In this document: piece by piece, positions 4,963 to 35,523 of the stretch | Layout: each line of letters opens with the position of its first letter | How positions within the stretch are numbered: position 1 is the stretch's first letter | Translations under genes and position numbers: made by a program | DNA from: Escherichia coli | GTDB taxonomy: Bacteria > Pseudomonadota > Gammaproteobacteria > Enterobacterales > Enterobacteriaceae | Assembly (NCBI RefSeq): GCF_024502345.1 | Contig: NZ_JALDNN010000001.1 | DNA length: 64,000 nucleotides | Reading direction: 5' to 3' (one strand) | Notes under the pieces: model-generated | The model's database searches: none | What the model was told of the DNA's origin: nothing | What the model saw: the letters and a program-made list of their open reading frames with translations, nothing else

Positions 4963-5002
4963 AATCACAACATATTATTAGTGATGATTAAATCACATTA
5001 AC

Positions 5003-5332
5003 ATGATAAGTGAGAAAGTTATGATTATCGATAAAGAATACGCACTTGTAAATGCAACAGCAAGACTTAACACTGACCTGAGGGATTATGAATATGAAAT
5101 AAACAACGCCGCCATCATAACATTTGGCAATGACCTCATTGAGGTAATCGTATATCAGTTCAGCTTTGTCATCAGCATCAGGGCAGAGGGTGAAAAAATA
5201 AAGCACGGCCTACTTGTTAACTTCGGTAAAAATATAGCAAGACAGGTTTCATCACTTTGTGCATCCGCAATGCGAGTCTACCCGAATGAAAAACACAAAC
5301 CGAGCCGTCAGCTTTTCCATTGCATAAATTAG
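5003..5332 (+). CDS. hypothetical protein (109 aa), AT-rich
   Basis: ORF-track ORF only, lying between the WYL regulator and the DUF262/DUF1524 gene. Confidence 0.3.
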   Translation: MISEKVMIIDKEYALVNATARLNTDLRDYEYEINNAAIITFGNDLIEVIVYQFSFVISIRAEGEKIKHGLLVNFGKNIARQVSSLCASAMRVYPNEKHKPSRQLFHCIN

Positions 5333-14357: not shown

Positions 14358-14516
14358 GTTTCAGAACGCCACAATTTAAGCGTTCTGCCTCCAAATCAAT
14401 TCTACCGAACTCAACCAGATTCCCCCCACATCAACCCCATTGTGTGGGTATAATTGCGGGTATACCCCAGTTCGACAGAATTTGTACCCTCTTTAACGCA
14501 TTCAGAAGGCTGAACT

Positions 14517-18937: not shown

Positions 18938-19379
18938 GGTAATGACTCCAACTTATTGATAGTGTTTTATGTTCAGATAATGCCCGATGACTTTGTCATG
19001 CAGCTCCACCGATTTTGAGAACGACAGCGACTTCCGTCCCAGCCGTGCCAGGTGCTGCCTCAGATTCAGGTTATGCCGCTCAATTCGCTGCGTATATCGC
19101 TTGCTGATTACGTGCAGCTTTCCCTTCAGGCAGGATTCATACAGCGGCCAGCCATCCGTCATCCATATCACCACGTCAAAGGGTGACAGCAGGCTCATAA
19201 GACGCCCCAGCGTCGCCATCGTGCGTTCACCGAATACGTGCGCAACAACCGTCTTCCGGAGCCTGTCATACGCGTAAAACAGCCAGCGCTGGCGCGATTT
19301 AGCCCCGACATAGCCCCACTGTTCGTCCATTTCCGCGCAGACGATGACGTCACTGCCCGGCTGTATGCGCGAGGTTACC
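18938..19379 (-). mobile_element. IS1 remnant (about 442 bp including one terminal IR)
   Basis: GGTAATGACTCCAACTTATTGATAGTG at 18938 is the IS1 end. Identity to IS1 stops at GAGGTTACC (19371-19379). Confidence 0.9.
18953..19330 (-). pseudogene. insB: IS1 insB portion, cut off from insA
   Basis: The translation [37 protein letters not shown]... is IS1 InsB. Confidence 0.9.
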
Positions 19380-19445
19380 TGCTCCCCGTTGATTAATACA
19401 CCGTGATGTTAGTAATGTCTTCATAAGCCACATGAGGACATCCCC

Positions 19446-19709
19446 ATGAAGAAGCGTTTTTCCGACGAACAGATCATATGTATTCTCCGCGAGGCCGAAG
19501 CTGGCGTTTCTGCCCGTGAGCTCTGCCGTAAGCACGCCATTTCCGACGCCACCTTTTACACATGGCGTAAGAAGTATGGCGGTATGGAGGTGCCTGAGGT
19601 TAAGCGCCTGAAGTCGCTTGAGGAAGAGAACGCCAGACTCAAGAAGCTGCTTGCCGAAGCCATGCTGGATAAAGAGGCGCTTCAGGTGGCTCTTGGGCGA
19701 AAGTACTGA
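19446..19709 (+). CDS. IS3-family transposase OrfA (HTH)
   Basis: [46 protein letters not shown] is a typical IS407-group OrfA. Confidence 0.9.
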
Positions 19710-19732
19710 CGACAGACCAGAAGCGGGAAGCC

Positions 19733-20566
19733 GTGATGTTGATGTGTGATGCGACCGGTCTGTCGCAACGTCGTGCCTGCAGGCTTACAGGTTTATCCCT
19801 GTCGACCTGCCGCTATGAGGCTCACCGTCCGGCTGCTGATGCGCATTTATCAGGGCGCATCACTGAGCTGGCACTGGAGCGCAGGCGTTTTGGCTACCGT
19901 CGTATTTGGCAGTTGCTGCGCCGTGAAGGGCTTCATGTTAATCATAAGCGCGTGTACCGGCTTTATCACCTCAGTGGCCTGAGCGTAAAACGCAGAAGAC
20001 GTCGTAAAGGGCTGGCAACAGAACGTCTGCCGCTGCTCCGTCCGGCGGCGCCCAATCTGACCTGGTCGATGGATTTCGTCATGGACGCACTTTCCACCGG
20101 TCGCAGGATCAAGTGTCTTACCTGCGTCGATGATTTCACAAAGGAATGCCTGACGGTCACTGTTGCCTTTGGGATTTCAGGCGTTCAGGTCACGCGTATT
20201 CTGGACAGCATTGCACTGTTTCGAGGCTATCCGGCGACGATAAGAACTGACCAGGGGCCGGAGTTCACTTGCCGTGCACTGGATCAATGGGCCTTTGAGC
20301 ATGGTGTTGAGTTGCGCTTAATCCAGCCGGGCAAGCCAACGCAGAACGGATTTATTGAGAGCTTTAACGGACGATTTCGCGATGAATGTTTGAATGAGCA
20401 CTGGTTCAGCGATATCGTTCATGCCAGGAAAATTATTAATGACTGGCGGCAGGATTATAACGAATGCCGCCCGCACTCCACGCTGAATTATCAGACACCG
20501 TCTGAATTTGCAGCGGGCTGGAGAAAGGGTCATTCTGAGAATGAAGATTCCGACGTTACTAACTGA
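19733..20566 (+). CDS. IS3-family transposase OrfB (DDE), normally made as an OrfAB fusion by -1 frameshift near 19697-19703
   Basis: DDE region with TDQGPEF. The orfB frame is open upstream of 19733 and joins orfA if CGAAAG is read in the -1 frame. Confidence 0.85.
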
Positions 20567-20812
20567 GTGTTGTATCTAATCGTGGGGGCAGGTCACTCGA
20601 CTTGGTTCCATTAAAAACCATGAAGTTGATATAGGGTCAAGATTTTATACGATATACACATCAAGCATCTTGCATGAGTCGCACTGACTGACCCGGGTTA
20701 GTTACCATCATATTCTTTATGGTTGAGACCATACGGAAATCAGTGAATTAAAAATATTTATTCATCCAAAACACAAATGGTTTTAAGAAAGCCTAATGCC
20801 CTTCTTGTAAAA

Positions 20813-21082
20813 TTATTCAAGATAGTCAAGTATGTTTTTTATATTGTCAATTAAGGCGACATGCAGGTCAGGGTCATCACATTCATCTGAATGGCAATAG
20901 GAAATATGTTGAAGTATAATTCTTTTTTTGAATTCACTAACTGTACACTCCAACTCATACACCGACCGTACGATATCAATACAAGGTTCATCATCGATTA
21001 AAAAATCCTGCATTTTATTATACTTATCAGTCAGATCTTCTATCATAGAAATTAATACGGGGTCATTAACTAACATTGGCAT
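20813..21082 (-). CDS. small acidic hypothetical protein (89 aa)
   Basis: ORF 20813-21232 trimmed to the ATG at 21082 after GAGGAG. Overlaps the AraC gene end by 17 nt. Confidence 0.4.
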   Translation of the reverse strand: MPMLVNDPVLISMIEDLTDKYNKMQDFLIDDEPCIDIVRSVYELECTVSEFKKRIILQHISYCHSDECDDPDLHVALIDNIKNILDYLE

Positions 21083-21470
21083 ATCTCTCCTCATAATCTG
21101 AAAGTAAAGATGGACACAGCGCTGATAAATTCCAATTCCCTTGCTTGCGGTACCGACCGGGAGGAAGATGAAACTTGTTTTTAAAAGCTCTCGTGAAAGT
21201 TTGTTGCGAATTAAAACCATACTGAAGTGCAATGTCTAGGACTGTTCTGGAAGTCAATTTCAGATCAATCGCAGCACATGATAATCGACGAGCACGAACA
21301 TATTCACCCAGCGCAACACCGGTCGTCTGTTTAAACAAACGTTGAAAATGCCATCGTGAATACCCAGACTTCTCAGCAATAAATTCTACTGGCAAGGTTG
21401 TATTCAATGAACTTTCAACCCACTGCAAAATATCTTTGACAACACTTTCAGAATATTTCCTGGTGTCCAT
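21066..21470 (-). CDS. small AraC-family regulator (MarA/SoxS/Rob-N-like, two HTH)
   Basis: IAEKSGYSRWHFQRLFKQTTG and ALQYGFNSQQTFTRAFKNKF are canonical AraC HTH pairs. Confidence 0.8.
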   Translation of the reverse strand: MDTRKYSESVVKDILQWVESSLNTTLPVEFIAEKSGYSRWHFQRLFKQTTGVALGEYVRARRLSCAAIDLKLTSRTVLDIALQYGFNSQQTFTRAFKNKFHLPPGRYRKQGNWNLSALCPSLLSDYEERYANVS

Positions 21471-21562
21471 TCTCTCCCCCCAAACCATATTCTATGAATA
21501 TATTCAAACCAGAATACGGTCTCTGAGTCTGTCATCCATGAAGAACTCAGGGACCCAACTCT

Positions 21563-24064
21563 TTATTTTCGTAATAACCTCAGGCCATTTGCCACAACCA
21601 GAAGACTGGCACCAACATCAGCAAATACAGCCATCCACATAGTTCCCATTCCCATGAGCGTGAGTACAAGGAATACGGCTTTAATACCTAGAGCGAGGCT
21701 GATATTTTGCACGAGTAAGCTGTACGTTTGTCGGGATAATTTTACAAAGGCTGGGATTTTACGCAGGTCATCATCCATTAAGGCTACATCTGCAGTTTCA
21801 ATCGCCGTATCAGTACCCATTGCGCCCATAGCAAAACCGATATCAGCTGCAGCCAGAGCCGGTGCATCATTGATACCATCACCAACCATCCCAGTGATTC
21901 CAATCCGTGAATGCTCTTCAACTGCACGATGTTTATCTTCTGGCAATTGATTCCCTCGAGCCTCATCGATTCCAACCTGAGATGCGATTGCTTTAGCTGT
22001 ATGTGGGTTATCACCAGTCAGCATAATAGTTTTAACGCCAAGTTCATGAAGTTGTTCAATCGCTTCACGGCTGCTGTTTTTAACAGTATCAGCAACAGCG
22101 AACAACCCAAGCACTTGCTTACCATCATTGAGTAAAATAACTGTTTTACCCTGGCTTTCCAGCCTTTGTACTGTTGCTTTAATCTCTGATGGACAATTAA
22201 AGTGTTCTTCAGTCAAACGCAGGTTACCAAGGTAAAAATCCTTACCTGTAATCGCGCCATGCACACCTCGCCCAACAATCGCTTCAAAGCTGTCAACATC
22301 CTGCTTTTTCAAATCAGCAGAAGCATTCACAATTGCCAGTGAAACAGGGTGATCAGAGTAACTAGCGAGACTAGCTGCAGTAGTACGAACTTCACGCTCG
22401 CTCCACCCATTGAATACCATTACGTCGGTTTGTACTGGTTTCCCATAGGTAATAGTTCCTGTTTTATCCAGCGCAAGGGCTTTTAGCTTACGTCCCTGCT
22501 CAAGATAAACACCGCCTTTAATGAGAATCCCTTTGCGAGCAGCTGCAGTAAGTCCACTAACAATCGTTACTGGCGTAGAAATAACCAGGGCACATGGACA
22601 CGCAATGACAAGCATAACTAAAGCTTTATAGATCCACTCCTGCCATGTTCCTGCCCCAAACAATGGTGGCAATACAGCAACCGCAACAGCAATACCCATA
22701 ACGACGGGGGTATAAATCTGGGAAAAGCGGTCAACAAAACGTTGTGTAGCTGCTTTGGCGCCTTGCGCCTGCTCAACGGCATGAATGATGCGAGCAAGGG
22801 TTGTATTATTTGCAGCTGCAGTGACTTTATATTCAAAAGAGCCTGACTGATTTATTGTTCCAGCAAATACAGCATCGCCCGCAATTTTATCGACAGGCAT
22901 ACTTTCACCTGTAATTGGAGCTTGGTTAATGGTGGTTTGGCCTTTGACGATTTCTCCGTCGAGACCAATTCGTTCACCTGGTTTTACCCTGACAATACTG
23001 CCCGGTTGTACGCTACTGGCGTCAACTTCCTGCCATGTTCCATCAGCTTGTTGGACCATTGCAGTTTCAGGAGTCAGGTTCATCAGGGAACCTATTGCAT
23101 TTCTGGCTCTATCAAGTGATTTGGCTTCTATCAGCTCGGCAATGGTGAATAACACCATAACCATCGCCGCTTCTGGCCACTGCCCAAGGACCAAAGCCCC
23201 AGTAACGGCAATACTCATTAGTGCATTGATATTCAAGTTGCCATTGCGAATCGAAATCCAACCTTTTTTGTAGGTTGTCAGACCACAAGAAAGCACTGCT
23301 ATCAAAGCCAACCCAGCTTCTAGCCAGTCAGGCATATCAGCCCAGTGCATCACTTCGGCTGCAAGAGCAGCTACGCCAGCAAGAGCTAATGGCCACCAGG
23401 GCTTTTTTTTCTCCTGGGTATTTTTCTTGCCGCTAGTATTATCAGAGACTTCTGGCGCGAATCCCAACGAGCGAATTGCAGCCATGATAGCTTCAAGCGA
23501 ATCCGGTGTATGGGTTACAGTCAAAACACGCTGCATCAGGTTGAAATCAAGCTCTTTAACAGCGCTCATTCCACCCAGTTTCTTTTTGATAAGATTTTCT
23601 TCAACAGGACAATCCATCTGCATAATGCGAATTTCTGTCCGTAATCCACCAGCCACAACCTGCGAGCCCCCTAGGCTACTCAATTGTTCTGGAGCAGCGG
23701 AGCAACAATCCCCCTCATGGCCGTGATCGTGGCCTTCATGAGAATGCTCTTGCGCGGCATGAGCATGGTTACATCCCTTATGATTATGCTCATCATGCGA
23801 ATGCCCTTCGCCGCCATGGCTATGGGCATCATGATTATGGCCTTCATGGTTATGGCCTTCATGGTTATGACCTTCATGGGAATGATCATCACTGCATTTC
23901 TTGTGATTATGAGCCTGCTGATCATGTGCATGATCATTTGCTTTATGTGATTCACCAGTATTCTTAACCCGGAGTCCTGTCCCTAAATTGAACGTTTCAC
24001 AGCAACTAGCCGCTTCGTCTCCTGCAGGGTTTTTGCTATTTTTTACACCACCACTCATTTTCAT
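21563..24064 (-). CDS. P1B-type heavy-metal ATPase, Zn/Cd/Pb class (ZntA/CadA-like) with a His-rich N-terminus
   Basis: CPC motif (ACPCALVISTP), [13 protein letters not shown], an MDCPVEE metal-binding domain and a long HxH-rich tract. Confidence 0.9.
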   Translation of the reverse strand: MKMSGGVKNSKNPAGDEAASCCETFNLGTGLRVKNTGESHKANDHAHDQQAHNHKKCSDDHSHEGHNHEGHNHEGHNHDAHSHGGEGHSHDEHNHKGCNHAHAAQEHSHEGHDHGHEGDCCSAAPEQLSSLGGSQVVAGGLRTEIRIMQMDCPVEENLIKKKLGGMSAVKELDFNLMQRVLTVTHTPDSLEAIMAAIRSLGFAPEVSDNTSGKKNTQEKKKPWWPLALAGVAALAAEVMHWADMPDWLEAGLALIAVLSCGLTTYKKGWISIRNGNLNINALMSIAVTGALVLGQWPEAAMVMVLFTIAELIEAKSLDRARNAIGSLMNLTPETAMVQQADGTWQEVDASSVQPGSIVRVKPGERIGLDGEIVKGQTTINQAPITGESMPVDKIAGDAVFAGTINQSGSFEYKVTAAANNTTLARIIHAVEQAQGAKAATQRFVDRFSQIYTPVVMGIAVAVAVLPPLFGAGTWQEWIYKALVMLVIACPCALVISTPVTIVSGLTAAARKGILIKGGVYLEQGRKLKALALDKTGTITYGKPVQTDVMVFNGWSEREVRTTAASLASYSDHPVSLAIVNASADLKKQDVDSFEAIVGRGVHGAITGKDFYLGNLRLTEEHFNCPSEIKATVQRLESQGKTVILLNDGKQVLGLFAVADTVKNSSREAIEQLHELGVKTIMLTGDNPHTAKAIASQVGIDEARGNQLPEDKHRAVEEHSRIGITGMVGDGINDAPALAAADIGFAMGAMGTDTAIETADVALMDDDLRKIPAFVKLSRQTYSLLVQNISLALGIKAVFLVLTLMGMGTMWMAVFADVGASLLVVANGLRLLRK
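23831..23875 (-). repeat. 3 x 15-bp tandem repeat encoding HEGHN units in the ATPase His-rich tract
   Basis: Read directly: ATGRTTATGRCCTTC x3 on the plus strand. Confidence 0.9.
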
Positions 24065-24090
24065 TGCCTCATCTGTTAACTATACTGACG

Positions 24091-24121
24091 ATTAAAGACC
24101 CTAATCTAACTAGAGGGTCAA
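24091..24121 (-). promoter_or_regulatory. MerR-type promoter/operator for the Zn/Cd/Pb ATPase
   Basis: The minus strand reads TTGACC-19 nt-TTTAAT. The dyad ACCCT-N11-AGGGT lies in the overlong spacer. Confidence 0.75.
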
Positions 24122-24139
24122 GCGCATAAGGGGGGAGGC

Positions 24140-24592
24140 ATGAAAATTGGTGAATTGGCCCGTAAGGCGGATTGTCCGGTGGAAACTATTCGGTACTATG
24201 AGAAAGAAGGATTACTTCAGGCTCCATTAAGAGATATTGAAAATAACTATCGCCGTTACAACAATACTCATCTGGAAAAGTTATTATTTATCCGACGCTG
24301 CCGCTCTCTTGATATGACCCATGAGGAAATACGTGCATTGCTACTGGCAATGAATAATCACGGTAAAGACTGTGGCCCCATTGATGCAATAATCAGTGCC
24401 CATCTCACTCATGTTCAGCATCGTATTAAAGAATTAATAGCCCTGGAAATACAACTCAAAGAACTTAATAACTATTGCAGCTCAGACCGGAGCGTGGACG
24501 AATGCGGGATAGTACAGAAATTGACTGCTGATGAAGAGAATGGTGATCTTCCTTTAACCGTACCAACTGACCACTTGGGGGGTGTGCATTAG
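24140..24592 (+). CDS. MerR-family metal sensor (CadR/ZntR/PbrR-like)
   Basis: MKIGELARKADCPVETIRYYEKEGLL. Divergent from the ATPase, and the RBS GGGGGGAGG is present. Confidence 0.85.
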   Translation: MKIGELARKADCPVETIRYYEKEGLLQAPLRDIENNYRRYNNTHLEKLLFIRRCRSLDMTHEEIRALLLAMNNHGKDCGPIDAIISAHLTHVQHRIKELIALEIQLKELNNYCSSDRSVDECGIVQKLTADEENGDLPLTVPTDHLGGVH

Positions 24593-24681
24593 TGGTGTGC
24601 GCTTATAAGTTGATTAGACTGATGGCGTAACACAAGCCCATACAGCTTTGTGCTACGCCATCATGCCCTTAAAATAAGGGG

Positions 24682-25146
24682 TCAGGCTTTTTCCATTTCG
24701 TTACCACGAGAACGACGTTGCACTGCCCCTTCTCTCTTACCGGGATGGCTTTTAGCATCAGCGGTCATTAATGTCTGGAGTATTGGGCATTCAACTCGCT
24801 CATCCCCAGCACAGCTTTTGATCAGAGCTCTGAGTGTATCTGCCATTCGTCGCATATTTTCCATACGTCGCTCTAAATCATCCATATGCTCTTGTGCCAG
24901 ACGTTTAACATCGGCGCTCTGGCGAGATTTGTCATTCCATAACTTGAGCAAATCGGCTATCTCTTCAAGAGAAAAACCAAGATCGCGCGCACTGCGGATA
25001 AAAATCAGACGATGGACATCATTGGGTGCATAATCACGGTAGCCCGCTTCGGTACGGCCAGTAGCAGGAATCAGACCAATTTGCTCGTAATAGCGAATCA
25101 TCTTTGCGGAGATTCCTGATTCGTTCGATGCTTTACCAATGTTCAT
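24682..25146 (-). CDS. cueR: MerR-family Cu(I) sensor (CueR-like)
   Basis: MNIGKASNESGISAKMIRYYEQIGLIP plus a C-terminal C...C pair (CAGDERVECP). ORF-track ORF 24682-25284 trimmed to the ATG at 25146. Confidence 0.8.
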   Translation of the reverse strand: MNIGKASNESGISAKMIRYYEQIGLIPATGRTEAGYRDYAPNDVHRLIFIRSARDLGFSLEEIADLLKLWNDKSRQSADVKRLAQEHMDDLERRMENMRRMADTLRALIKSCAGDERVECPILQTLMTADAKSHPGKREGAVQRRSRGNEMEKA

Positions 25147-25159
25147 AGCTCCCCTTTTC

Positions 25160-27655
25160 TTAGTGCTCAGAGTCTTCTGCCAGCGGAGGCTGGAACCGAC
25201 GCAAACGAAGTGCGTTGCCCAGGACAAATACACTGGATAGCGCCATCGCGCCTGCAGCAAAGATTGGTGAAAGCAGCAATCCATAGGCAGGGTACAGCAG
25301 GCCTGCTGCTACAGGGATCAATGCGGCATTATAACCAAACGCCCAAAAAAGATTTTGCCTGATGTTACCTATGGTTGCCTTAGACAATCCAATAGCATTA
25401 GGCACACCCTGTAGGTTGCCGGACATTAAGACAACATCAGCAGATTCCACCGCTATATCGGTACCTGTACCAATTGCAAGCCCAATATCTGCCACGGCTA
25501 AAGCTGGGGCATCATTAATGCCATCACCAACATAAGCGACCTTACCGTAAGACTCCTTCAACCGACGAACTGCTTCAACTTTCCCTTCTGGCAACACTTC
25601 GGCAACCACTTCATCAATACCAAGCTGTCTCGCAATCGCATTTGCTGTATTGGCATTGTCACCGGTAATCATTGCGACTTTGAGCCCCAGTTGGTGCAAT
25701 GCATTTATGGCAATCGGCGTACTTGATTTAATAGGGTCAGCGACTGCGATAATGGCAGCCAGACGTCCATCAATAGCAACATAGAGTGGCGATTTTCCTT
25801 CGTTTCCAAGGCGTATCGCAGTCTTTGAAAAATACTCGATATCCAAGCCTAACTCACGCATAAATCGATCGGCCCCGACCTCTACGCGCTCTCCGTCTAC
25901 GGTAGCCCTGACGCCCATCCCAGTAATTGAATCAAACTCAGTCAACGCTGGCAGCGATATCTCTTTTCCTAGAGCAGCTTCAACGATAGCGCGGGCAATA
26001 GGATGTTCCGAACGTGATTCAACAGCGGCAACTTTTGCTAATACTAAGTCAAGCTCAAACCCTTCGGCCAACTCCAGGTCTGTCATTACTGGGCGCCCTT
26101 CAGTCAAAGTACCTGTTTTGTCTACAGCGACAACCCTGGCATCTTTAAGCAACTGCAGAGCTTCTCCCTTACGGAACAAGATCCCCATTTCTGCACCACG
26201 CCCAGTACCTACCATGATAGAGGTTGGGGTAGCCAATCCCATTGCACATGGGCAGGCAATGATCAATACAGCCACGGCATTAACCAGTGCGAAAGACAGG
26301 GCCGGTGATGGCCCAAATGTTAACCAGGCAAGGAAAGTTAACAACGCTGCCAGCATCACCACAGGAACAAACCATAATGTCACCTTATCGACCACGGCTT
26401 GTATAGGTAGTTTAGAGCCCTGGGCTTGCTCTACCATTCTGATTATTTGTGACAACATCGTCTGGCCACCAACGGCTGTTGCACGCAACCTCAATGCTCC
26501 TTTCTGGTTAACAGTCCCGCCAACCATTAAGCTTCCGGGAACTTTCTCGACGGGGATAGGCTCCCCCGTTATCATCGATTCATCGACAAAACTTGTTCCT
26601 TCACTCACCTCACCATCAACAGGTATCCGCTCACCTGGTCGAACTTCGATAATGTCATCAAGGGCTACATCACTAATGGGAATATCGATGACAATGCCGT
26701 TACGCAGCACATGCGCCTCTTTGGCCTGCAATCCAACCAAACGCTTGATAGCCTCAGACGTTCGACCTTTAGCTCGCGCCTCCATAAATCGTCCTAAAAG
26801 AATAAGAGCGACGATTACCGCAGCAGCTTCGTAATACACATTGACGGTACCTTGAGGCAAAAGACCTGGAGCAAAGGTCGCAATCATTGAATAACCGAAT
26901 GCAGCGAGAGTCCCGACGGAGACGAGAGAGTTCATGTCTGGGCCAAGTCTTAATAACGCGGGAATACCTTTCAGGTAAAAGCGCCGCCCCGGAATAGCCA
27001 ACACCAGCAATGTTAATACAAACTGGAGATACCAGCTTTCCTGGAGCCCAATGGTATCCATTATCCATTGATGCATTCCCGGTATCACATGCGACCCCAT
27101 TTCCAGAATAAATACTGGTAACGCAAGTACGGTCGCCAGAACTAAATCTTTCTTCAACGCAACCTTTTCAGCATCTTTTTTTTCTGCGGCACTATCATTA
27201 TTCTGGCTTTGGTTATCAACCAGGCTGGCTTCATAACCGATTTTTTCGATAGCAGTTATGAGGTCATCAACTCCTGCGGTTCCACGTACAGTAGCTCTTT
27301 CAGTCGCTAAATTAACAGTGGCTTCTTTTACACCTTTAACCGCTCGGAGCGATTTTTCGACACGCCCTACGCATGATGCACATGTCATGCCCTGAACTGA
27401 TAACTCTACAGAAGCTTGAGGAACCTCATAACCAACCTTTTCAACTGCTTCAACCAACGCCATACGATTAACGAATGCATTTAGGCGGATATCTGCACGC
27501 TCTGTTGCAAGGTTAACGCTTACGTTTTGTACGCCTTCAACCTTAGCCAGAGCGGCTTCAACTCGTCCAACGCAGCTTGCACAAGTCATTCCCTCAATGG
27601 GCAAGCTGACTTGAGTTTCACCATCATTAGAATGCTGTTTTTTTTGAATGCTCAT
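25160..27655 (-). CDS. copA: Cu(I)-translocating P1B-1 ATPase
   Basis: Two N-terminal [15 protein letters not shown] domains, CPC ([11 protein letters not shown]), DKTGT and GDGINDAP. Confidence 0.9.
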
Positions 27656-27691
27656 GATGTATTTCTCATCGTTATGGTCAGATAAAGAACA

Positions 27692-27722
27692 ACCTTAAGG
27701 CTTACCATCGTGGGAAGGTCAA
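27692..27722 (-). promoter_or_regulatory. CueR-type MerR promoter for copA
   Basis: The minus strand reads TTGACC-19 nt-TAAGGT with the dyad CTTCCCA-cga-TGGTAAG, similar to E. coli PcopA. Confidence 0.7.
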
Positions 27723-27777
27723 GCGCATTATTTTGAACATGCCGATGCCGTGGAAGGAATGGATATAAAAACCCTTT

Positions 27778-27800
27778 ACATGAACACATATTCATATGTT
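27778..27800 (+). promoter_or_regulatory. ArsR/SmtB (CzrA-like) operator upstream of the CDF gene
   Basis: ACATGAACACATATTCATATGTT closely resembles the S. aureus czr operator core ATGAACAAATATTCAGATG (recall). Confidence 0.6.
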
Positions 27801-27840
27801 ATATTGAAGGCATCATGTATAACCAACCGCTTGAGGCCCT

Positions 27841-28845
<1,005 letters not shown>

Positions 28846-28890
28846 TCAGGCCTCTGGTGATGCACTATCAATTTAGGAGGGAGAATCATA

Positions 28891-29253
28891 ATGTCCAGCA
28901 CATCAGATTGCGGCAACATACAAGACTGTTCCGCGACAGATCATGTCGCGGAGCCAGATCTATCAATGCTCTCGCAAAACGACATTGGGCAACTTTCCGA
29001 GATTTTCCATCTACTGGGGGACCAGTCAAGACTACGAATCCTGCTTTACTGTATGCGTGGTTCGGTCTCTGTAGGCGACATTGCTGAGTCGCTCCAGTTA
29101 TCACAATCTCTGGTCAGTCATCATCTGAGGTTGTTACGAAGTGCAAGGCTTGTTCGCGGAGAGAGAAAGGGTAAGTACATATTTTATAGCATAATGGATC
29201 ACCATGTAAGTCATGTTCTTCAGGACATGGTATTTCACATAGCTGAAGAATAA
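28891..29253 (+). CDS. ArsR/SmtB-family metalloregulator
   Basis: LGDQSRLRILLYCM...VGDIAESLQLSQSLVSHHLRLLRSARLV is a canonical ArsR wHTH. Confidence 0.85.
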   Translation: MSSTSDCGNIQDCSATDHVAEPDLSMLSQNDIGQLSEIFHLLGDQSRLRILLYCMRGSVSVGDIAESLQLSQSLVSHHLRLLRSARLVRGERKGKYIFYSIMDHHVSHVLQDMVFHIAEE

Positions 29254-29486
29254 CCCGAATGAATTTTGATAAGTAGAGCTTGTGTAATTCCAACTCACCT
29301 TAGTTTTTCATTACTTTGGTGAGTTGTTTCATCATTAATTTATTAAAACCTTAATAATTAACCTTTTAATAATGAAACCTGCCCCCTTCCCTTGTATGTA
29401 ATAAATACCTGATGGTTCACTATCACCAGATAAAGCGAAGTGAGCAGGCCACCTCATGAAGGAGAAACCTTGCTTTGCAAGCTTAT

Positions 29487-29508
29487 TGAATAGCCACGGA
29501 TAATCTAG
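29487..29508 (+). repeat. solo terminal-IR remnant of the IS3-family element found at 33425-38146
   Basis: TGAATAGCCACGGATAATCTAG versus TGAATCGCCACGGATAATCTAG at 33425 (21/22 match). Confidence 0.7.
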
Positions 29509-29510
29509 TT

Positions 29511-29550
29511 TGTCTGCTTCGTGCCAAAAGCGGACATTGCTACATCACAA
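29511..29550 (+). repeat. hairpin repeat copy 1 (TGTCTGCT-loop-AGCGGACA) plus 10-bp TACATCACAA
   Basis: Read directly. The partner copy is at 32483-32518. Confidence 0.85.
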
Positions 29551-29637
29551 TGCGTTATGGTCAACATCAGAATGCAGCCCTTGTGTTGTGACGTGTAGTC
29601 TGGCCTAAACGCAGTTGCACTACATTACCTCGTGGGG

Positions 29638-29886
29638 TCAGCGACGGCCCCGTTTCAGTTCACGTACACAGGGATCATACTCATCTGCATAGCCACCAAA
29701 GTCATGGCTGGGCATGAAGTACCACTTTTCACCTTTCCAACCAGCGATCCGGGTGGTCGGTTTGGTTTTATTCAGAACAACAATACAGACGCCGACGGGA
29801 GACACTGGAGGAAGAAGTCGTTGCACCACACACTCACGATTGCCCACATCAATCCAGTCTTTGACGTGAATTTCAGGATGGTTCAT
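29638..29886 (-). CDS. hypothetical protein (82 aa)
   Basis: ORF-track ORF, co-oriented with and downstream of the AAA_13 ATPase, inside the hairpin-bracketed segment. Confidence 0.4.
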   Translation of the reverse strand: MNHPEIHVKDWIDVGNRECVVQRLLPPVSPVGVCIVVLNKTKPTTRIAGWKGEKWYFMPSHDFGGYADEYDPCVRELKRGRR

Positions 29887-30166
29887 TGTTTATCTTCATG
29901 TGATGGAATTGCTTACCGTAATGCATCCGATTACCGTGCAAGATCATGTATCCTGTCGCCTTCCTGCTCCCTTGAGGTGGCGCTGCCTTGGTACAGTCAG
30001 CACTCTGAATGTCAGGCCCAGCCGCGAGGCCGGAAGCTCATCAGGTCGCTGCGGTAGGGGAAAACGGTCCGGGTAACAGACCGTAATCGCCTGCTGGTGG
30101 TTATTGGCCCTGACTGGAGCCGCACTGAAAACTGAAGCGCATTAATATACTCGCGCCTCCGACAGG

Positions 30167-32305
30167 TCAGGCAATTTCTTCCAGCGCATCGTCATTTGCC
30201 GGTGGAGGAGGAAGTATAAGCGCGTCGCACTCCCTGATGACATATTCAGGAATGAGATCAAACCGGGCAGGATCCAGCTGACAGATAAATTCATTTTCAA
30301 TGTGGTAGGTCTCATTCATGAATTTACGTATTACTGCGTTCTCGAGTCCGGTCTGAAGCAACCTGAACACCTGCAGTTTCTCGTAGCCATTACGGCAGAG
30401 CAGATAAAGCGCACGTATACGATCCGGGTCGGTGAGCTGAACGAAAGTGGCCTGGTAGTCAAAGCCGGGAATGCGATCGGCGATTGCCTGGCAGCCGAAG
30501 GCAACTTTTTCTGCGGACATTTCAGGATGTCCCACTCCCTGCACAACGGGTTCACGGGTGTCGATGGGCGTTTCACGGTGATGAAAAAGGTTTGACAGCA
30601 CCTGATAGGCATCACCGAGGTCGTCCATAATTTCATAATGTCGGCGAAGATAGATCAACTTGATGATGTCTTCACTATCAGAGTCAGTGACAGACTGGCA
30701 GATCTGAGCAAAAGTGCGGATATCACTTTCACCGATGAGCTGCTCGGTGATGCAGCCTGCGCTGTAGTGCAAGTGTGAGGCCGTAACCAGATTACTGAAC
30801 AGCTTCCTGACGGACTTCAGTGTATCAATAATAGGCTCAACATCGTGAGTCAGCATCAGTACCGTTTCATTTTTCAGGCACTCACCGGTATTGCGGCGAA
30901 ACAGCATCTCCAGGATGGCAAATTTCTTGTTCTTATCAAACGATGAAATCGGGTCGTCAAGAATGATCAGGCCTGGCTTCTTGGCTAAGCATTCATACAT
31001 AAACAGAACAATGGCAAAGGCGTTGCGTTCACCGTAGCTGAGATGCTGGCTGCCGCCGCTGACGTAGCCTTCAAAGTCTTCGTGGCGCAGTTTCAGCCGA
31101 CATTTATCGCCTTCCCCAGTGATATCCACCTGATAACGATAGCCTGCGTAAGCCAGAAAGGTATTGATATCGGTTTTATGCTTGAGGATCAGCTTCTGCA
31201 TGCCCTGACGCTGCTTATTTATTTGACCCTGCAGGCGTCCGGCCTGCGTCGTCAGGTCGTCTAAAGAGGTATTGAGACTGGCTACGGTGCGGGCCGTTTT
31301 ATCCGACTGCAGCTCCGGGAAAAACTTCACGTCTAGGCGACAGGCTTCCAGTGCAGCCTTGACGTTGGTTGAAGCGCTGAACGTAAAGCCGTTAAGAGTC
31401 TTAAGGGTATTCAGCATATTTATCAGGCTGTCTGTCTGCTTCTTCACTGTCACGAGATATTCTTCGTGCTGTTTTTCCAGCCCACTTTTTAGGGTTGTAA
31501 TATCAGCGAGGCGGGCACGGGCAGGCTCTGAAAAATATTCGCCGAGTTTATCTAGCACGCCGATCAGGCCGATCAGGTTTTTAATGACAGCCTTATCATA
31601 CTCCGCGCTGACGCGGCTAATCTGCTCGGCCTTTTCACGGGAGTCGCCAGTACAGAACGGACAGCAGCCGTCGGATAGCGCGGAGAATTTCTCATACCCC
31701 CGGGTCTGCCACTCGATCCACTCTACGCTGCTTTTACTTTGGATGTACGGCTTATAAGATTCCAAACCGTCGGGAATGTGCTGAAGCTTGTTGCCAGCGG
31801 ATAAGCCTTTCATACCGGTAGACGTTTTTGCAATCCCGGTACTACTCAGCTTAAATGCGGCGCTGAGTTCCCCCAGGTGCGTGATGAATTCTTCAAGCCC
31901 GACGTTATCAGCAAACTGCTGCCGTATGGCCACGACCATGGCTTCGATTTCGCGTTCTGTCTCGTGATACGCTTCACTTTTGATGAAGATGTCAAAACTA
32001 TTACTTACTAACTCGTCTGGTTGAAAAGTGAATTGATCGACATATTTTTCATTAAAGCACATGACGTTTTGCAGGCCATCGACACCAGTTACCCTAGGCT
32101 GTACTGCATCGGGATTAGAACCACGGTATCTAAACGGAAGCAGGTCGCTGAGACCCTGTTCATCCCCGTTTACCGTACACTGAATCGCGCGGGAAATGGT
32201 GCTTTTTCCGGTGCCGTTAGGCGCAAATTTAATATTTAGTTTTTTTTCTGCCAGAGTTATATTTGCTTTATCGATGTTATTACAGCAATTAATTTCAATT
32301 TCCAT
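30167..32305 (-). CDS. AAA_13 / RloC-PrrC-like ABC-type ATPase (candidate anticodon nuclease or abortive-infection protein)
   Basis: Walker A APNGTGKST, a coiled-coil insert with CCPFC, signature LSYGERNAF and Walker B LIILDDP. The C-terminal region contains RRHYE...FHHRE. Confidence 0.65.
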   Translation of the reverse strand: MEIEINCCNNIDKANITLAEKKLNIKFAPNGTGKSTISRAIQCTVNGDEQGLSDLLPFRYRGSNPDAVQPRVTGVDGLQNVMCFNEKYVDQFTFQPDELVSNSFDIFIKSEAYHETEREIEAMVVAIRQQFADNVGLEEFITHLGELSAAFKLSSTGIAKTSTGMKGLSAGNKLQHIPDGLESYKPYIQSKSSVEWIEWQTRGYEKFSALSDGCCPFCTGDSREKAEQISRVSAEYDKAVIKNLIGLIGVLDKLGEYFSEPARARLADITTLKSGLEKQHEEYLVTVKKQTDSLINMLNTLKTLNGFTFSASTNVKAALEACRLDVKFFPELQSDKTARTVASLNTSLDDLTTQAGRLQGQINKQRQGMQKLILKHKTDINTFLAYAGYRYQVDITGEGDKCRLKLRHEDFEGYVSGGSQHLSYGERNAFAIVLFMYECLAKKPGLIILDDPISSFDKNKKFAILEMLFRRNTGECLKNETVLMLTHDVEPIIDTLKSVRKLFSNLVTASHLHYSAGCITEQLIGESDIRTFAQICQSVTDSDSEDIIKLIYLRRHYEIMDDLGDAYQVLSNLFHHRETPIDTREPVVQGVGHPEMSAEKVAFGCQAIADRIPGFDYQATFVQLTDPDRIRALYLLCRNGYEKLQVFRLLQTGLENAVIRKFMNETYHIENEFICQLDPARFDLIPEYVIRECDALILPPPPANDDALEEIA

Positions 32306-32482
32306 ACCTAATCCTTTACGGCAAAGACACTGAGCAGGCCCCGTATATTGCAGGCCCGATTAATTATTTAAGCTGAAGCCAGAACATATAAGCACCGTTT
32401 CATTTTTGAGTAAAGCACTCCGGGATTCGCCCTTGGTACCGCAGCGCCGGAGCAGTTGTTTTATAGAGCGTATGTACGGCGC

Positions 32483-32518
32483 TTGTGATGTATGTCCGCT
32501 TCGTGCCAAGAGCGGACA
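32483..32518 (+). repeat. hairpin repeat copy 2 (TTGTGATGTA plus TGTCCGCT-loop-AGCGGACA)
   Basis: Read directly. The hairpin has the same orientation as copy 1, while the adjoining 10-mer is inverted. Confidence 0.85.
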
Positions 32519-32588
32519 TTTGCACCCTCAGTACCCGCACCAGACTAAGCCGGCTCAGCAATGTCGGCGTTGCTGATACTGACAGACG

Positions 32589-33424
32589 TTATGCCGTTTT
32601 AAAGCGACGTTTCCGGTGTATCACCATGAGAGCGACAATTACCGCCACCGCAATTGTCGCGGTCCCCCGGAAGACGACTGATGAATCTCCTAGGATGATT
32701 TCCATGAATGATGATAAAAACTGGCCGGAGAATATAGCCATAGAAAGCCAGGCAAGGTTACGTCCCCGGACGCGAGCGTGACTCTGCTCGACTGTCATAT
32801 GATTCACAAGCGGCACCGACAGACCAAACCCACAACTCATTAAAACCCCGCCAGCGATGTAGAACACTACATTATCAGCGAATGAAAATATGAAATGTCC
32901 GGCAGCGTAGCAGCTAAACGCCGTGTACAGATTTCCGTACTCACGTAAACGCGCTATGAGGCGCGGCATCATCGCAGCAGCCCCGACGGCGACCAGTGAG
33001 ATAAACGACAGAAAGTATCCGGTTTCTGCTGCCCCAATAGCCATGCAGCTAAACACCTGCGGAATGATGATAATGCTGGTGAAGAAGCAAATCATGGACA
33101 GCAGGGCTGCAAAAAGCACAGGCGCTAATCGAGTCGCACTCACCGATTCGCTTTCTCCGGCGTTTTCATTCATGTTTTCTGTCCCAGAGGACAATTGTTA
33201 CGGCACAAACGCCAGCTGCATAACCAGAAGAACCTAGGCAAAAAGATGAAGCAAAAACGGCCACTGCCAGCCAAGGGTTGCAAGTAATCCGCCTATAAAC
33301 AGAAAAATGACACCGCCCAGCTCAATCAACATTCCCTGCGAAGGTATCATTTTCAGGCAAGCCTGACCGCTATGAAACGAGGAAATCAATCCGGTTCCTG
33401 CTGACATGACGATGGCGGTATCTG
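32589..33424 (-). pseudogene. MFS-type transporter remnant: 5' end removed by IS insertion, two in-frame stops
   Basis: The 6-TM ORF at 32589-33194 continues in the same frame upstream through TAA (33198-33200) and TAG (33234-33236) into further TM-like sequence, up to the IS end at 33425. Confidence 0.6.
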
Positions 33425-33442
33425 TGAATCGCCACGGATAAT

Positions 33443-33909
33443 CTAGACACTTCCGAGCCGTTGATAATACTGGTTTTCATATTCTGTCGGTGACATCTGA
33501 TCGCTAGAACCATGCCGACGCCTACTGTTATAAAACATTTCGATGTAATCAAAAATATCGCTGCGGGCTTCTTCCCGCGTTCCGTAGATCTTTTTCTTTA
33601 TCCGCTCGCGTTTCAGTAACTGGAAAAAGCTTTCTGCAACCGCGTTATCGTGGCAGTTACCACGACGGCTCATGCTGCCCTCCAGTCCGTGTGATTTCAG
33701 GAACGACTGCCACTCATGGCTTGTGTACTGACTGCCCTGATCCGAGTGAACCAGCACCTGTTTTTGGGGGTTACGCCGCCATACAGCCATCAGCAGTGCG
33801 TTCAGGACAATGTCCTTTGTCATCCGGGATTGCATTGACCAGCCGATAATTTTACGTGAGAACAGATCAACAACCACGGCAAGATACAGCCAGCCTTCGT
33901 GAGTCCTGA
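33443..33909 (-). pseudogene. IS3-family orfB, 3' part (exon 2 relative to the intron)
   Basis: The translation continues IRTHEGWLYLAVVVDLFSRKIIGW...HSDQGSQY...NAVAESFF. Confidence 0.85.
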
Positions 33910-33999: not shown

Positions 34000-35523
34000 T
34001 TAAATGCTGGCGAACGCCATTGCCACTTCTGTAAAGCGCGATGTATACGTGTTTCTGGTCTCCGTCCTCAGATAGGGATTACCTTCGGGTAGCCGCCAGC
34101 GGAACAGCTTCTTGCCTTGCCCCACCAACCGGTACAGTATTTCGCCGCTGAGCTTGCCGTGATTGGTTTTACCAAATAAAACCCACGTTTTGCTCTGACC
34201 CGGTTTCGGTGATTTACACCACCACCTCATCAGGGAAGCGATACCTGTACGGTATTTGCGGGCCAGCCAGTGAGCCAGCTTCCAGAACACGACACGGTCG
34301 ATATAACTGAAGACTTTGGCCTTAAAATCAACGAACTGATAGAACATAGCCCAGCCTTTCAGTTTTCGGTTGAGTTGTTCAGCCATATCGACTTTGCTTT
34401 CACTGTAGTTGCCTGATAACAGTGCTGTCAGCGATGCGGCGAAGTTTCTGGCTTTCTCCTGCGGGATCGTTGAGACCACTCGCATCTCGCCATAACGACT
34501 GCGTTTGCGAATGATCCTGTGCCCCAGAAAGATAAAGCCGTCATTAACATGGGTGATTTTAGTCTTATCCATGTTCAGCCTGAGTTTCAGACTGCCTTCG
34601 AGCACACCCCGACACTCCTCCCTGATGGCTTCCGCCTGTGCTTTGGTGCCTTTGACGATGAGGACAAAATCATCGGCATAGCGGCAGTACGCCACCGCGG
34701 GTTTCCACTGCCAGTTTTCTCTGACCGCCGTACTTCGGCCCCGTTGGATACTGTTATTCCAGTACCACCGATCTTTTCTGGCTTTCCCGCTCAGGTAGCG
34801 CTCATGCAGGTATTGATCGAACTCATTCAGCATGATGTTCGATAATAGCGGCGATATAACACCGCCCTGTGGCACACCTTCACTGGCCGCCCGAAAGAGA
34901 CCGACATCGATATGTCCCGCCTTGATGGTTTTCCACAGCAGAGTCATGAAACGTGCGTCACTGATCCTGCGGCGTACAGCCTTCATCAGCAGTCGATGAT
35001 GTACGGTGTCGAAGTAACTGGACAGGTCGCCTTCAATCACCCAGCGTCCCCGGGTTTCACCACAGTCTGTGAGCTGTAATTTCACCGTGCGGATCGCGTG
35101 GTGGACACTGCGCTCAGGCCGGAAGCCATATGAGAGCGTATGAAAATCACTCTCCCATATCGGCTCCATCGCCATCAGCATGGCCCGCTGAACAATACGA
35201 TCCCGCAACGCGGGGATACCCAGTGGTCGCAGTTTGCCGTTGCTTTTAGGGATGTAAACCCGTCTGGCGGGCAAGGGCTGGTAGTGGCCTGAGAGTAATT
35301 CATCCCTGAGGATTTGCAGCTCAACAGCCAGTCTGGCCTGTAGCATTGTTTTGTTCACGCCATCAACGCCGGGGGTATGGGCCCCCTTTGATGAAAGCGT
35401 GATCCGCGCCGCTTCAGCCAGCCATTCTGGTTGTGTTATCAGACGCAGCAGCCGTTGAATCCGTAGGGACGGATCGGTGGCTGCCCATGTGGCAAGCTTG
35501 CGTTGCATTTCGCTGATTATCAA
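34000..35523 (-). CDS. group II intron reverse transcriptase/maturase (IEP)
   Basis: RT motifs are present, including YADDFVLIV, plus a maturase (X) domain. No obvious HNH endonuclease Cys/His cluster is seen at the C-terminus. Confidence 0.9.
   Translation of the reverse strand: MIISEMQRKLATWAATDPSLRIQRLLRLITQPEWLAEAARITLSSKGAHTPGVDGVNKTMLQARLAVELQILRDELLSGHYQPLPARRVYIPKSNGKLRPLGIPALRDRIVQRAMLMAMEPIWESDFHTLSYGFRPERSVHHAIRTVKLQLTDCGETRGRWVIEGDLSSYFDTVHHRLLMKAVRRRISDARFMTLLWKTIKAGHIDVGLFRAASEGVPQGGVISPLLSNIMLNEFDQYLHERYLSGKARKDRWYWNNSIQRGRSTAVRENWQWKPAVAYCRYADDFVLIVKGTKAQAEAIREECRGVLEGSLKLRLNMDKTKITHVNDGFIFLGHRIIRKRSRYGEMRVVSTIPQEKARNFAASLTALLSGNYSESKVDMAEQLNRKLKGWAMFYQFVDFKAKVFSYIDRVVFWKLAHWLARKYRTGIASLMRWWCKSPKPGQSKTWVLFGKTNHGKLSGEILYRLVGQGKKLFRWRLPEGNPYLRTETRNTYTSRFTEVAMAFASI

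Follow-up and report, generated by a model that had tools for sequence, protein, structure and literature searches.

How did a candidate defence gene come to lie between two same-strand copies of one short palindrome on a large metal-resistance plasmid, and what kind of element do these palindromes delimit? The question is raised by a segment of about 3 kb in the 64-kb window analysed here (64,000 nucleotides of the Escherichia coli contig NZ_JALDNN010000001.1, the whole stretch to which positions refer unless a locus or another replicon is named). The original prediction had read the segment as a non-autonomous cassette moving a defence gene, with ends recalling IS200/IS605-type or REP/PATE-like elements. 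The cassette survives our analysis, with the same limits recovered in other genomic contexts, but its ends are of a different kind. Both palindromes are copies of a single site, here called B, which belongs to a family of sites at module junctions in phages, islands and plasmids; they are hybrids of their two neighbours, and exchange in the family is confined to the centre of the site.

The palindromes lie where they had been placed, TGTCTGCTTCGTGCCAAAAGCGGACA at 29511-29536 on the left and TGTCCGCTTCGTGCCAAGAGCGGACA at 32493-32518 on the right, both on the plus strand, identical at 24 of 26 positions and 2982 bp apart from start to start. A third copy was sought in the 64-kb window with up to three mismatches and not found, nor did any of 100 shuffles match. 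As predicted, the long open reading frames (ORFs) between them are those of a 712-aa ATPase and an 82-aa protein; the other ORFs listed for the segment overlap with them, and the one that was scanned (29632-30057) has no Pfam match. No transposase gene was found among the ORFs. The features on which the argument rests are as follows.

29511-29536, plus strand: left B-type site, arm TGTCTGCT followed by TC, core GTGCCA at 29521-29526, then AA and arm AGCGGACA; homology to an E. coli island begins at 29521
32493-32518, plus strand: right B-type site, arm TGTCCGCT followed by TC, core GTGCCA at 32503-32508, then AG and arm AGCGGACA
29527-32508: putative mobile unit of 2982 bp (core to core), comprising both the ATPase gene and the 82-aa ORF, as judged from the repeat spacing and the limits of identity
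29638-29886, minus strand: 82-aa ORF, no domain recognised
30167-32305, minus strand: gene for a 712-aa ABC/AAA_13 ATPase of the PADLOC candidate family PDC-S06 (Pfam AAA_13, E 7e-18; PDLC04889, E 1.3e-297)

The same cassette occurs in two further contexts, and in both of them the repeat units stand at its junctions. In 83 E. coli chromosomes it is 98.3% identical to the window, the identity being limited to positions 29521-32490, that is, beginning midway through the left palindrome and stopping shortly before the right one. These copies sit beside ychF in an island that starts with an integrase, which we read as P4-type and which matches the NCBIfam integrase-domain model PRK09692 (NF007246, E 1e-79). 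The island cassette again lies between two B sites (5991-6016 and 9191-9216 of locus L001), its flanks are unrelated to those of the window, and every neighbouring gene is set off by B sites or by sites of a second class, A. In the Klebsiella pneumoniae plasmid pKpn13-1, the cassette is 94.3% identical over 29511-32472, starting exactly at 29511. The junctions read as follows.

Left junction, window: CTAGTT TGTCTGCT TC GTGCCA AA AGCGGACA TTGCTACATC
Left junction, E. coli island: TTAGCC CTTCCGCA AT GTGCCA GA AGCGGACA TTGCTACATC
Left junction, pKpn13-1: TGTGGA TGTCTGCT GT GTGCCA GG AGCGGACA TTGCTCTATC
Right junction, window: GTGATGTA TGTCCGCT TC GTGCCA AG AGCGGACA TTTGCACCC
Right junction, E. 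coli island: GCAATGTA TGTCCGCT TC GTGCCA GG AGCGGACC TTGCTGAAGG
Right junction, Citrobacter freundii plasmid pIMP-CF-15-127: GTGATCAC TGTCCGCT TT GTGCCA AG AGCGGACA TTTGCACCC

Each window site is thus made of two halves with different histories. The left half of the left site differs among the three contexts and is specific to the plasmid context, whereas the core and everything to the right of it are common to all three and belong to the cassette. Conversely, the left half of the right site is that of the island's right site and its right half, with all that follows, is that of the C. freundii plasmid, which is what one would expect if a circle with a single site had entered a pre-existing site.

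The neighbours of the cassette behave in the same manner. In pIMP-CF-15-127 the right site and the transporter module beyond it recur with relBE as their left neighbour, and this relBE block is 98.5% identical to the Qin prophage of E. coli K-12 up to and including the site, beyond which K-12 differs. The E. coli island also carries, adjacent to the ATPase cassette, a cassette with a 159-aa gene (5261-6021 of L001); in strain NB4833 this cassette has a B site at each end, with other neighbours on the left and on the right. In E. coli K-12 RV308 (locus L127), the Qin B site at 4001-4026 has a degenerate right arm, AGCAGCCA, and falls within the annotated ORF ydfV between relB and flxA, and ydfV may not be a real gene; an A-type site (~4992-5017) follows flxA, which, having sites on both sides, is itself a site-bounded module.

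The point of exchange can be located by linkage between site variants and flanks. We clustered the 400-nt flanks of 85 distinct B copies from enteric, viral and plasmid sequences. Two left-flank clusters (n=22 and n=16) each pair with 11 right-flank clusters, and several right clusters have more than one left partner. The left half of the site (positions 1-10) is fixed within each left cluster, as TGTCCGCTTT or TGTCCGCTGA, whereas nine right halves occur, in complete agreement with the right flank; two of the right-flank clusters, joined to both left clusters, keep their own right half and switch the left one. Among 326 pairs with the same left and different right flanks, positions 5, 9 and 10 agree in 100%, whereas 17, 18 and 26 agree at background level, and pairs with the same right and different left flanks show the reverse. 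The core GTGCCA is present in 84 of the 85 B copies, and the A class, whose core is GAGCGA, gives the same linkage pattern in 66 copies. Positions 1-10 always go with the left flank and 17-26 with the right one, so that all detectable exchanges fall between positions 10 and 17 and none in the equally conserved 8-bp arms.

The arms, for their part, are conserved as sequence. When copies were found by the core and one arm and the other arm was then inspected, the arms proved near-invariant, with Y at position 5, R at 22 and N at 26 as the only common variants. The variants at 5 and 22 combine as if independent (C5/A22 14 times, T5/A22 twice) and therefore provide no covariation evidence for pairing of the arms as a stem. 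In lox, FRT and dif sites, the core need only match that of its partner. Identical arms around discrete, invariant cores would be expected if the same held here.

The B class has the form TGTCYGCT-nn-GTGCCA-nn-AGCGGACA, or, with the flanking A/T included, ATGTCCGCTTT, GTGCCA and AAAGCGGACAT, in all 26-28 bp; the A class has the arms of B. Sites with these arms fall into discrete core classes, namely GTGCCA, GAGCGA, TGACCC and a GGGGGT class. In enteric and viral loci the standard arms also surround AGGTAT/ATACCT (13 times) and TTGCTC (five times), which hints that enterics hold more core classes than A and B. An exact-pattern scan with TGTCYGCTNNGTGCCANNAGCGGAC returned at least 120 stretches in species-representative genomes and at least 120 in IMG/VR. 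The 33-nt consensus matches 2,357 PLSDB plasmids, mostly from Klebsiella and Enterobacter, 30 phage records, P2-like and lambdoid phages among them, and 2,906 of 5,426 complete E. coli genomes. The number of copies per E. coli genome has a median of one and never exceeds five; the copies sampled were all in mobile elements. The palindrome is therefore indeed a common repeat that occurs independently of the ATPase gene, a finding that the original prediction had counted against a cassette, but its place is at module junctions, so that it lends weight to the cassette reading rather than refuting it.

The settings of these sites are recurrent. In lambdoid prophages the site comes after the replication genes, at the point where the variable region begins, and in seven of 10 samples the largest cargo ORF matches GajB, DarT, PD-T7-1, PDC-S06, PDC-S33, PDC-S39 or a Lamassu-like protein, with AbiU in another. 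Sites are also held by islands with P4-type integrases, and a Pseudescherichia contig displays the order site, FMN reductase-arsRBC, site, vapBC, site, ASCH, site. In phage P2 (locus L253), an A site and an inverted B site bracket the Z/fun region, between gpFI and the gpG/tail-fibre assembly gene.

L253, 4000-4025: P2 site, AGTCTGCT TTGAGCGAGG AGCGGACA
L253, 5598-5623: P2 site, CGTCTGCT CTTGGCACAG AGCGGACT

The A site usually has the opposite orientation and lies either 14-16 nt ahead of a B site or at the cassette's other end; neighbouring sites are arranged as B with inverted A around a cassette (72 cases), as A/B doublets (24), as direct B..B pairs, the type seen in the window (15), and as direct A..A pairs (seven).

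A different distribution was encountered in soil metagenome-assembled genomes (MAGs), represented by 120 8-kb loci (~0.8 Mb) that were picked for holding a site. These loci, from Alphaproteobacteria and some Betaproteobacteria, contain 464 sites, mostly as inverted doublets with a 19-nt spacer and with GTGCCA, TGACCC or GGGGGT-class cores. Soil sites often lie 9 nt past the stop codon of PF04392 (ABC_sub_bind) genes whose products end in ...ADEVIE. The doublet spacer, cATGTGCAGYGCACnAGCCnA, is itself a small palindrome (for example, in L019 and L072 among L007-L126). Alignment ends lie within 5 nt of the hairpins in 23% of cases versus 2.6% at random in these loci, which supports a junction role only weakly, as the hairpins are near gene ends. 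A tRNA-3'-end-like sequence adjoins some Nitrosomonadaceae copies, but ARAGORN calls no tRNA there and a tRNA-adjacent att site was rejected.

Taken together, these observations lead us to consider it probable, if by a limited measure, that the site is a lox/dif-like double-stranded site at which a trans-acting recombinase carries out exchange confined to the core, and that the window cassette was inserted at a B site. We infer double-strand conservative recombination, a circular intermediate and an enzyme of the tyrosine type. The recombinase would bind the inverted arms on duplex DNA and exchange strands inside the asymmetric 6-bp core, and exchange at that place makes every site a hybrid of its two neighbours. 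From a direct B..B pair the cassette would leave as a one-site circle, with the predicted junction TTGTGATGTA-TGTCCGCTTC-GTGCCA-AAAGCGGACA-TTGCTACATC, and could enter any other B site. The window would then represent entry of such a circle into a B site between an IS3 remnant and a module with MFS transporter and CBASS genes, the predicted empty site being CTAGTT-TGTCTGCTTC-GTGCCA-AGAGCGGACA-TTTGCACCC. Cassettes bounded by B and inverted A could pass from one replicon to another through two separate reactions, B with B and A with A, in the manner of recombinase-mediated cassette exchange. The asymmetric core would set the orientation, which fits the same-strand sites seen within arrays. More broadly, it is possible, and we suggest it only tentatively, that such sites, with shared arms and incompatible 6-bp cores served by a recombinase acting in trans, sustain an integron-independent exchange of cassettes common to proteobacterial mobile elements, either through circles or by B/inverted-A exchange. 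Its settings would be lambdoid prophages (after the replication genes), the P2 Z/fun region, P4-integrase islands and large plasmids, and its cargo defence, toxin-antitoxin and resistance genes.

Several results weigh against the proposed recombination. The cassette and its surroundings do not encode the recombinase, genes of tyrosine recombinases show no enrichment close to the sites, and 80 Pin-like loci in prophages are devoid of any B or A site. Empty sites lacking the 3-kb segment, which the original prediction had proposed to look for, were found neither in the 5,426 E. coli genomes nor in PLSDB with chimeric flank queries; exact patterns of the predicted empty site and circle junction had no match in JGI metagenomes, nor was a circle junction for the cassette present in the E. 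coli genomes or PLSDB. The arrangement is identical in 17 plasmids, and the window copy may have been fixed for a long time. The junction pairs are phylogenetically non-independent, so that the linkage signal comes from ~20-40 distinct flank combinations, and a central-dinucleotide cut by a serine recombinase, or a topoisomerase cut in the core, would give the identical linkage. Finally, the soil sites are dense beside ordinary genes (ABC_sub_bind, MFS, Crp), which is hard to square with an active recombinase and suggests that the dense soil repeat has, or once had, a REP-like life. It is this density beside housekeeping genes that keeps three of the rival explanations alive at low probability.

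One of these invokes no dedicated enzyme at all: the repeats would serve in mRNA stability or protein binding, as REP sequences do, and act in exchange as short homology for RecA or Red/RecT, along the lines of the 'linker' model of phage mosaicism. Short homology is accepted by the Rad52-like recombinases of lambdoid prophages, in which these junctions are frequent. The location of the repeats at the 3' ends of genes and their abundance beside housekeeping genes in soil bacteria agree with such a role, and homologous recombination has been invoked for exchange at the P2/P4 hotspots (Rousset et al., 2022). Yet neither 8-bp arm, each of them conserved as strongly as the 6-bp core, ever contains an exchange point: in all 22 flank combinations of B, and in many more of A, the left flank keeps positions 9-10 and the right one keeps 17-18. 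With crossovers spread uniformly over ~27 positions, the probability that an event falls between 10 and 17 is ~0.26, and that all of ~20 events do so is negligible. Besides, a length of 26 bp does not exceed the minimum at which RecA works efficiently, and we consider the homology explanation unlikely. Mobilization as single-stranded DNA is what the original prediction had in mind, with hairpins nicked in the loop by an HUH enzyme (Y1, RAYT or Rep-like) and the segment released and re-inserted in the fashion of IS200/IS605, REPINs or double-origin rolling-circle elements. Both window copies are on the same strand and can fold, the right one at -9.2 kcal/mol (z -3.6) and the left one, because of a T:G pair, more weakly at -6.2 kcal/mol (z -2.2); T:G pairs are tolerated solely on the strand that bears GTGCCA, the exchanges are located in what would be the loop, and the inverted doublets and density of the sampled Alphaproteobacteria loci are REPIN-like. 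The stems, however, show no compensatory changes, and four unrelated invariant loops occur on identical stems, which an HUH active site reading the nick would not accept. Nor are the two hairpins distinct subterminal left and right ends with cleavage outside them, as IS200/IS605-type ends would be: they are one and the same site, half of it belonging to the neighbour, with exchange at positions 11-16. The palindromes do resemble REP sequences in forming inverted doublets and in their density in sampled loci of some soil bacteria, but there is no GTAG/CGTC tag outside the stem, and stem and loop sizes are unlike those of the described REP superfamilies. A search by tblastn with an approximate IS200 TnpA probe, which makes for a weak test, gave no match, either in the window, where the best E was 2.1, or across 2.7 Mb of related loci. 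As the median of one copy per E. coli genome likewise speaks against it, we regard a single-strand mechanism as quite unlikely.

A strong cleavage site for a type II topoisomerase, comparable to what REP/BIME-2 elements are for gyrase, or the crossover site of a small serine recombinase would place a central cut at GT-GC-CA, with subunit swapping. The B and A cores share the central GC, 26 bp is what we take to be the length of hix and gix sites, and the outer hexamer YGTCYG presumably corresponds to the half-site hexamer of gamma-delta/Tn3 resolvases. Moreover, the gene of a Pin-like serine recombinase was part of the ancestral cassette; in Pantoea soli its stop codon is 17 nt away from a B site. 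A universal enzyme such as gyrase would account for conservation from Alpha- to Gammaproteobacteria. On the other hand, the prophage Pin-like loci without sites count here too, serine recombinase genes are rare near the sites, and a serine enzyme needs only the central 2 bp to match, which leaves six invariant, asymmetric positions and discrete cores unexplained; such an enzyme is, in our judgement, very unlikely to be responsible. That there has been no cassette mobility here, the locus having been assembled by IS3-family activity and deletions with the hairpins as independent insertions of a small mobile palindrome, is the least credible of the explanations and highly improbable. It can draw on the IS3 inverted-repeat remnant that abuts the left site, on the IS3-like elements on both sides of 20596-33424 and on the want of a known empty site, but independent insertion would not yield hybrid sites with halves from two donors, and the limits of the cassette are identical in the E. 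coli and K. pneumoniae contexts, in which there is no IS remnant.

Other identities of the hairpins were set aside. Neither looks like an intrinsic terminator, there being no T run after either of them and no call by a terminator scan. Rfam gave no match at E up to 10 for the window hairpins, nor any in 15 doublet-containing loci. The inverted 10-mers that had been noted on the inner sides of the hairpins are present as well, but they are not conserved in the island or in pKpn13-1 and were rejected as element ends.

29541-29550, plus strand: inner 10-mer TACATCACAA, cassette sequence, with TCTATCACTA at the same place in pKpn13-1
32483-32492, plus strand: inner 10-mer TTGTGATGTA, made by a ~215-bp deletion across an ATG microhomology

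The E. coli island has only TTGTGATG, 219 bp from the right site (8972-9190). The extra ~215 bp of the island are filled by an 82%-identical C-terminal remnant of the Pin-like recombinase gene that is intact in the P. soli plasmid; in the window this remnant was removed by the deletion.

The cargo itself is a candidate defence gene, although not of the type first proposed. The description of the ATPase as RloC/PrrC-like holds at the level of the ABC/AAA_13 fold, but the PADLOC PrrC match (E 1.4e-3) covers only residues 446-468, a 23-residue Walker-type stretch, whereas PDLC04889 (PDC-S06) matches residues 1-698 over profile positions 1-688 of 693 (E 1.3e-297). Anticodon nucleases of this kind join an ABC ATPase to a C-terminal nuclease domain, and PrrC is linked to a type Ic restriction-modification locus. 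No restriction-modification genes adjoin here, and the identification as a PrrC/RloC anticodon nuclease was rejected; by sequence, the protein is a candidate defence protein of PDC-S06. In the E. coli plasmid pMB18183_1 (12768-14905 of locus L002), RefSeq calls the ATPase gene frameshifted, yet megablast reports 100.0% identity to the intact ORF of the window; the call could stem from one differing base or from the annotation. For the 82-aa protein, Pfam, NCBIfam and PADLOC gave no match; its family is a narrow one of hypothetical proteins from enterobacteria, and other plasmids encode it without the ATPase.

The surroundings of the cassette are those of a large metal-resistance plasmid, and positions 28600-33400 are ~100% identical in 17 PLSDB plasmids from Klebsiella, Citrobacter, Raoultella and E. 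coli. To the left of the cassette lie genes for two P-type ATPases, a CDF transporter and an ArsR regulator, to the right a truncated MFS gene.

29487-29508, plus strand: solo 22-bp terminal inverted repeat of an IS3-family element, TGAATAGCCACGGATAATCTAG, identical at 21 of 22 positions to the IS end at 33425-33446, in direct orientation
32519-33424, minus strand: neighbouring module with a truncated MFS transporter gene at 32589-33194 (Pfam MFS_1), 98.7% identical to C. freundii pIMP-CF-15-127
33425-33446, plus strand: end of the IS3-family element that interrupts the MFS/CBASS module, from comparison with the solo repeat and with sister plasmids
L249, 23891-28878, and L002, 15093-18849: the MFS/CBASS/NIPSNAP module in sister plasmids, with a third B site at 28854 of L249 and 18828 of L002

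The solo repeat, correctly noted beside the left hairpin, stops 2 nt short of the left site; it is a neighbour of that site, outside the cassette, and is retained in sister plasmids that lack the IS at 33425. It faces into the cassette, and together with the far end of the IS at 33425 would make an inverted-end pair around the cassette and the MFS fragment. In the sister plasmids, the MFS module runs on into genes for a Cap15-family effector and a nucleotidyltransferase (a CBASS pair) and for NIPSNAP, the whole being bounded by B sites. The IS3-family element with one end at 33425 (to ~36700) appears to be interrupted: its rve ORF (33443-33877, minus strand) represents only the C-terminal part of the integrase core and is directly followed by an ORF for a group II intron reverse transcriptase/maturase (34000-35523, minus strand). 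On a larger scale, the 12.8 kb at 20596-33424, with metal resistance and cassette, are colinear with plasmid pNUITM-VR1_1 and have IS3-like sequences on both sides in the window, those at 19374-20595 being 89% identical to ISKpn34 of pNUITM-VR1_1, which suggests an IS-bounded translocatable unit or the product of a rearrangement. No integrase was found within 13 kb of the cassette in the window; ~14 kb upstream of it, an ORF at 14514-15779 (plus strand) matches the P4-type integrase heading the E. coli ychF island (E 5e-64).

The significance of the family lies in the question of how anti-phage systems pass from one hotspot to another among phages, satellites, islands and plasmids, which a defined 26-bp site renders testable. 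Such sites lie at the edge of the hotspots in P2 (Z/fun) and in lambdoid phages (after the replication genes), of cassette arrays in islands and of cargo regions in plasmids, and the cargo sampled beside them includes GajB, DarT, PD-T7-1, AbiU, CBASS and PDC-S06, PDC-S33 and PDC-S39; they could be used to delimit cassettes when mining for new defence genes. A full-text literature search with the site sequence in both orientations yielded nothing relevant, and its 13-mers had no match at all, while a keyword search for a described cassette system yielded nothing beyond a citation concerning P2. According to that citation, fun of P2 is flanked by inverted repeats which enable site-specific exchange between phage and bacteria (Nilsson, Karlsson and Haggard-Ljungquist, 2004, Mol Biol Evol 21:1, PMID 12949155, cited in the review PMC8987985). 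As far as the citing article conveys them, the repeats of Nilsson et al. may be A and B sites of the present family, and the window feature is then of a known but barely characterised kind. The P2 Z/fun region carries an A and an inverted B site of this family, whereas the window has two direct B sites on a large plasmid. Rousset et al. (2022) defined the P2/P4 defence hotspots without mention of the sites and, in this like the literature on the P2 repeats, without naming a recombinase, speculating instead on cos ends and homologous recombination. The breadth of the family, its core classes, the confinement of exchange to the core and the link to defence cargo in lambdoid prophages, islands and plasmids appear to be absent from the searchable literature.

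Comparison with better known systems reveals partial likenesses. REP/REPIN-RAYT systems likewise consist of short extragenic palindromes that follow the 3' ends of genes, form inverted doublets (spaced by 19 nt in Alphaproteobacteria and 14-16 nt in enterics here) and reach high density in the sampled loci of some genomes, but the present sites have no GTAG/CGTC tag, a 10-nt 'loop', no stem covariation and exchange inside the palindrome, and in enterics they are low-copy and confined to mobile elements. The CGTC-tagged REP superfamily (PMC3733652) was considered and rejected, as its members have an unpaired tag and loops of 4-5 nt, whereas TGTC/CGTC is here within the stem. The 7-bp crossover core of the R64 shufflon sites, GTGCCAA in sfx, begins with the B core GTGCCA and is likewise enclosed by arms around 6-7 bp; however, the right arm of sfx (TCCGGT...TGG) is unrelated and its left arm not conserved, and its tyrosine recombinase, Rci, only inverts, within one operon. 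No rci gene was found near B sites, and, the arms being unrelated, the match to the sfx core is a lead rather than a sign of membership. The arm consensus of P2-type integrases, tgTGGaCa (PMC3448106), agrees with the site arm aGCGGACA at six of eight positions, possibly by coincidence.

Integron cassettes are similar in forming arrays of promoter-poor accessory and defence cassettes that are delimited by sites and have a fixed exchange point, hybrid sites and a circle, the last of which is only our reconstruction in the present case. Unlike integrons, the present system has no intI, attI or Pc, and its site lacks GTTRRRY; attC sites measure 57-141 bp and are defined by structure, whereas this site of 26-28 bp is conserved in sequence and gives no sign of a folded single-stranded substrate; and there are at least two core classes, often as inverted pairs. 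Alike in layout are the pdif modules of Acinetobacter, served by XerC/XerD. The dif site has an 11-6-11 geometry, and the B site shows the same Xer/dif-type layout, two 11-bp arms around a 6-bp centre. Resistance and toxin-antitoxin modules, alternating site orientation and the lack of a recombinase in cis are further features in common with pdif modules. The B and A arms nevertheless bear no resemblance to what we take to be the XerC/XerD binding consensus (e.g. TTATGTTAAAT), the orientation classes are set here by different cores rather than by C/D versus D/C order, and the hosts are mainly plasmids, prophages and islands of Enterobacterales. A further parallel is with the heterospecific lox and FRT sites of genetic engineering, in which the same arms surround different, mutually incompatible spacers and a cassette carries one site of each kind. 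The present system differs in being natural, and the incompatibility of its A and B cores is suggested by analogy; should the core classes be truly incompatible, the family would constitute a natural heterospecific set of recombination sites.

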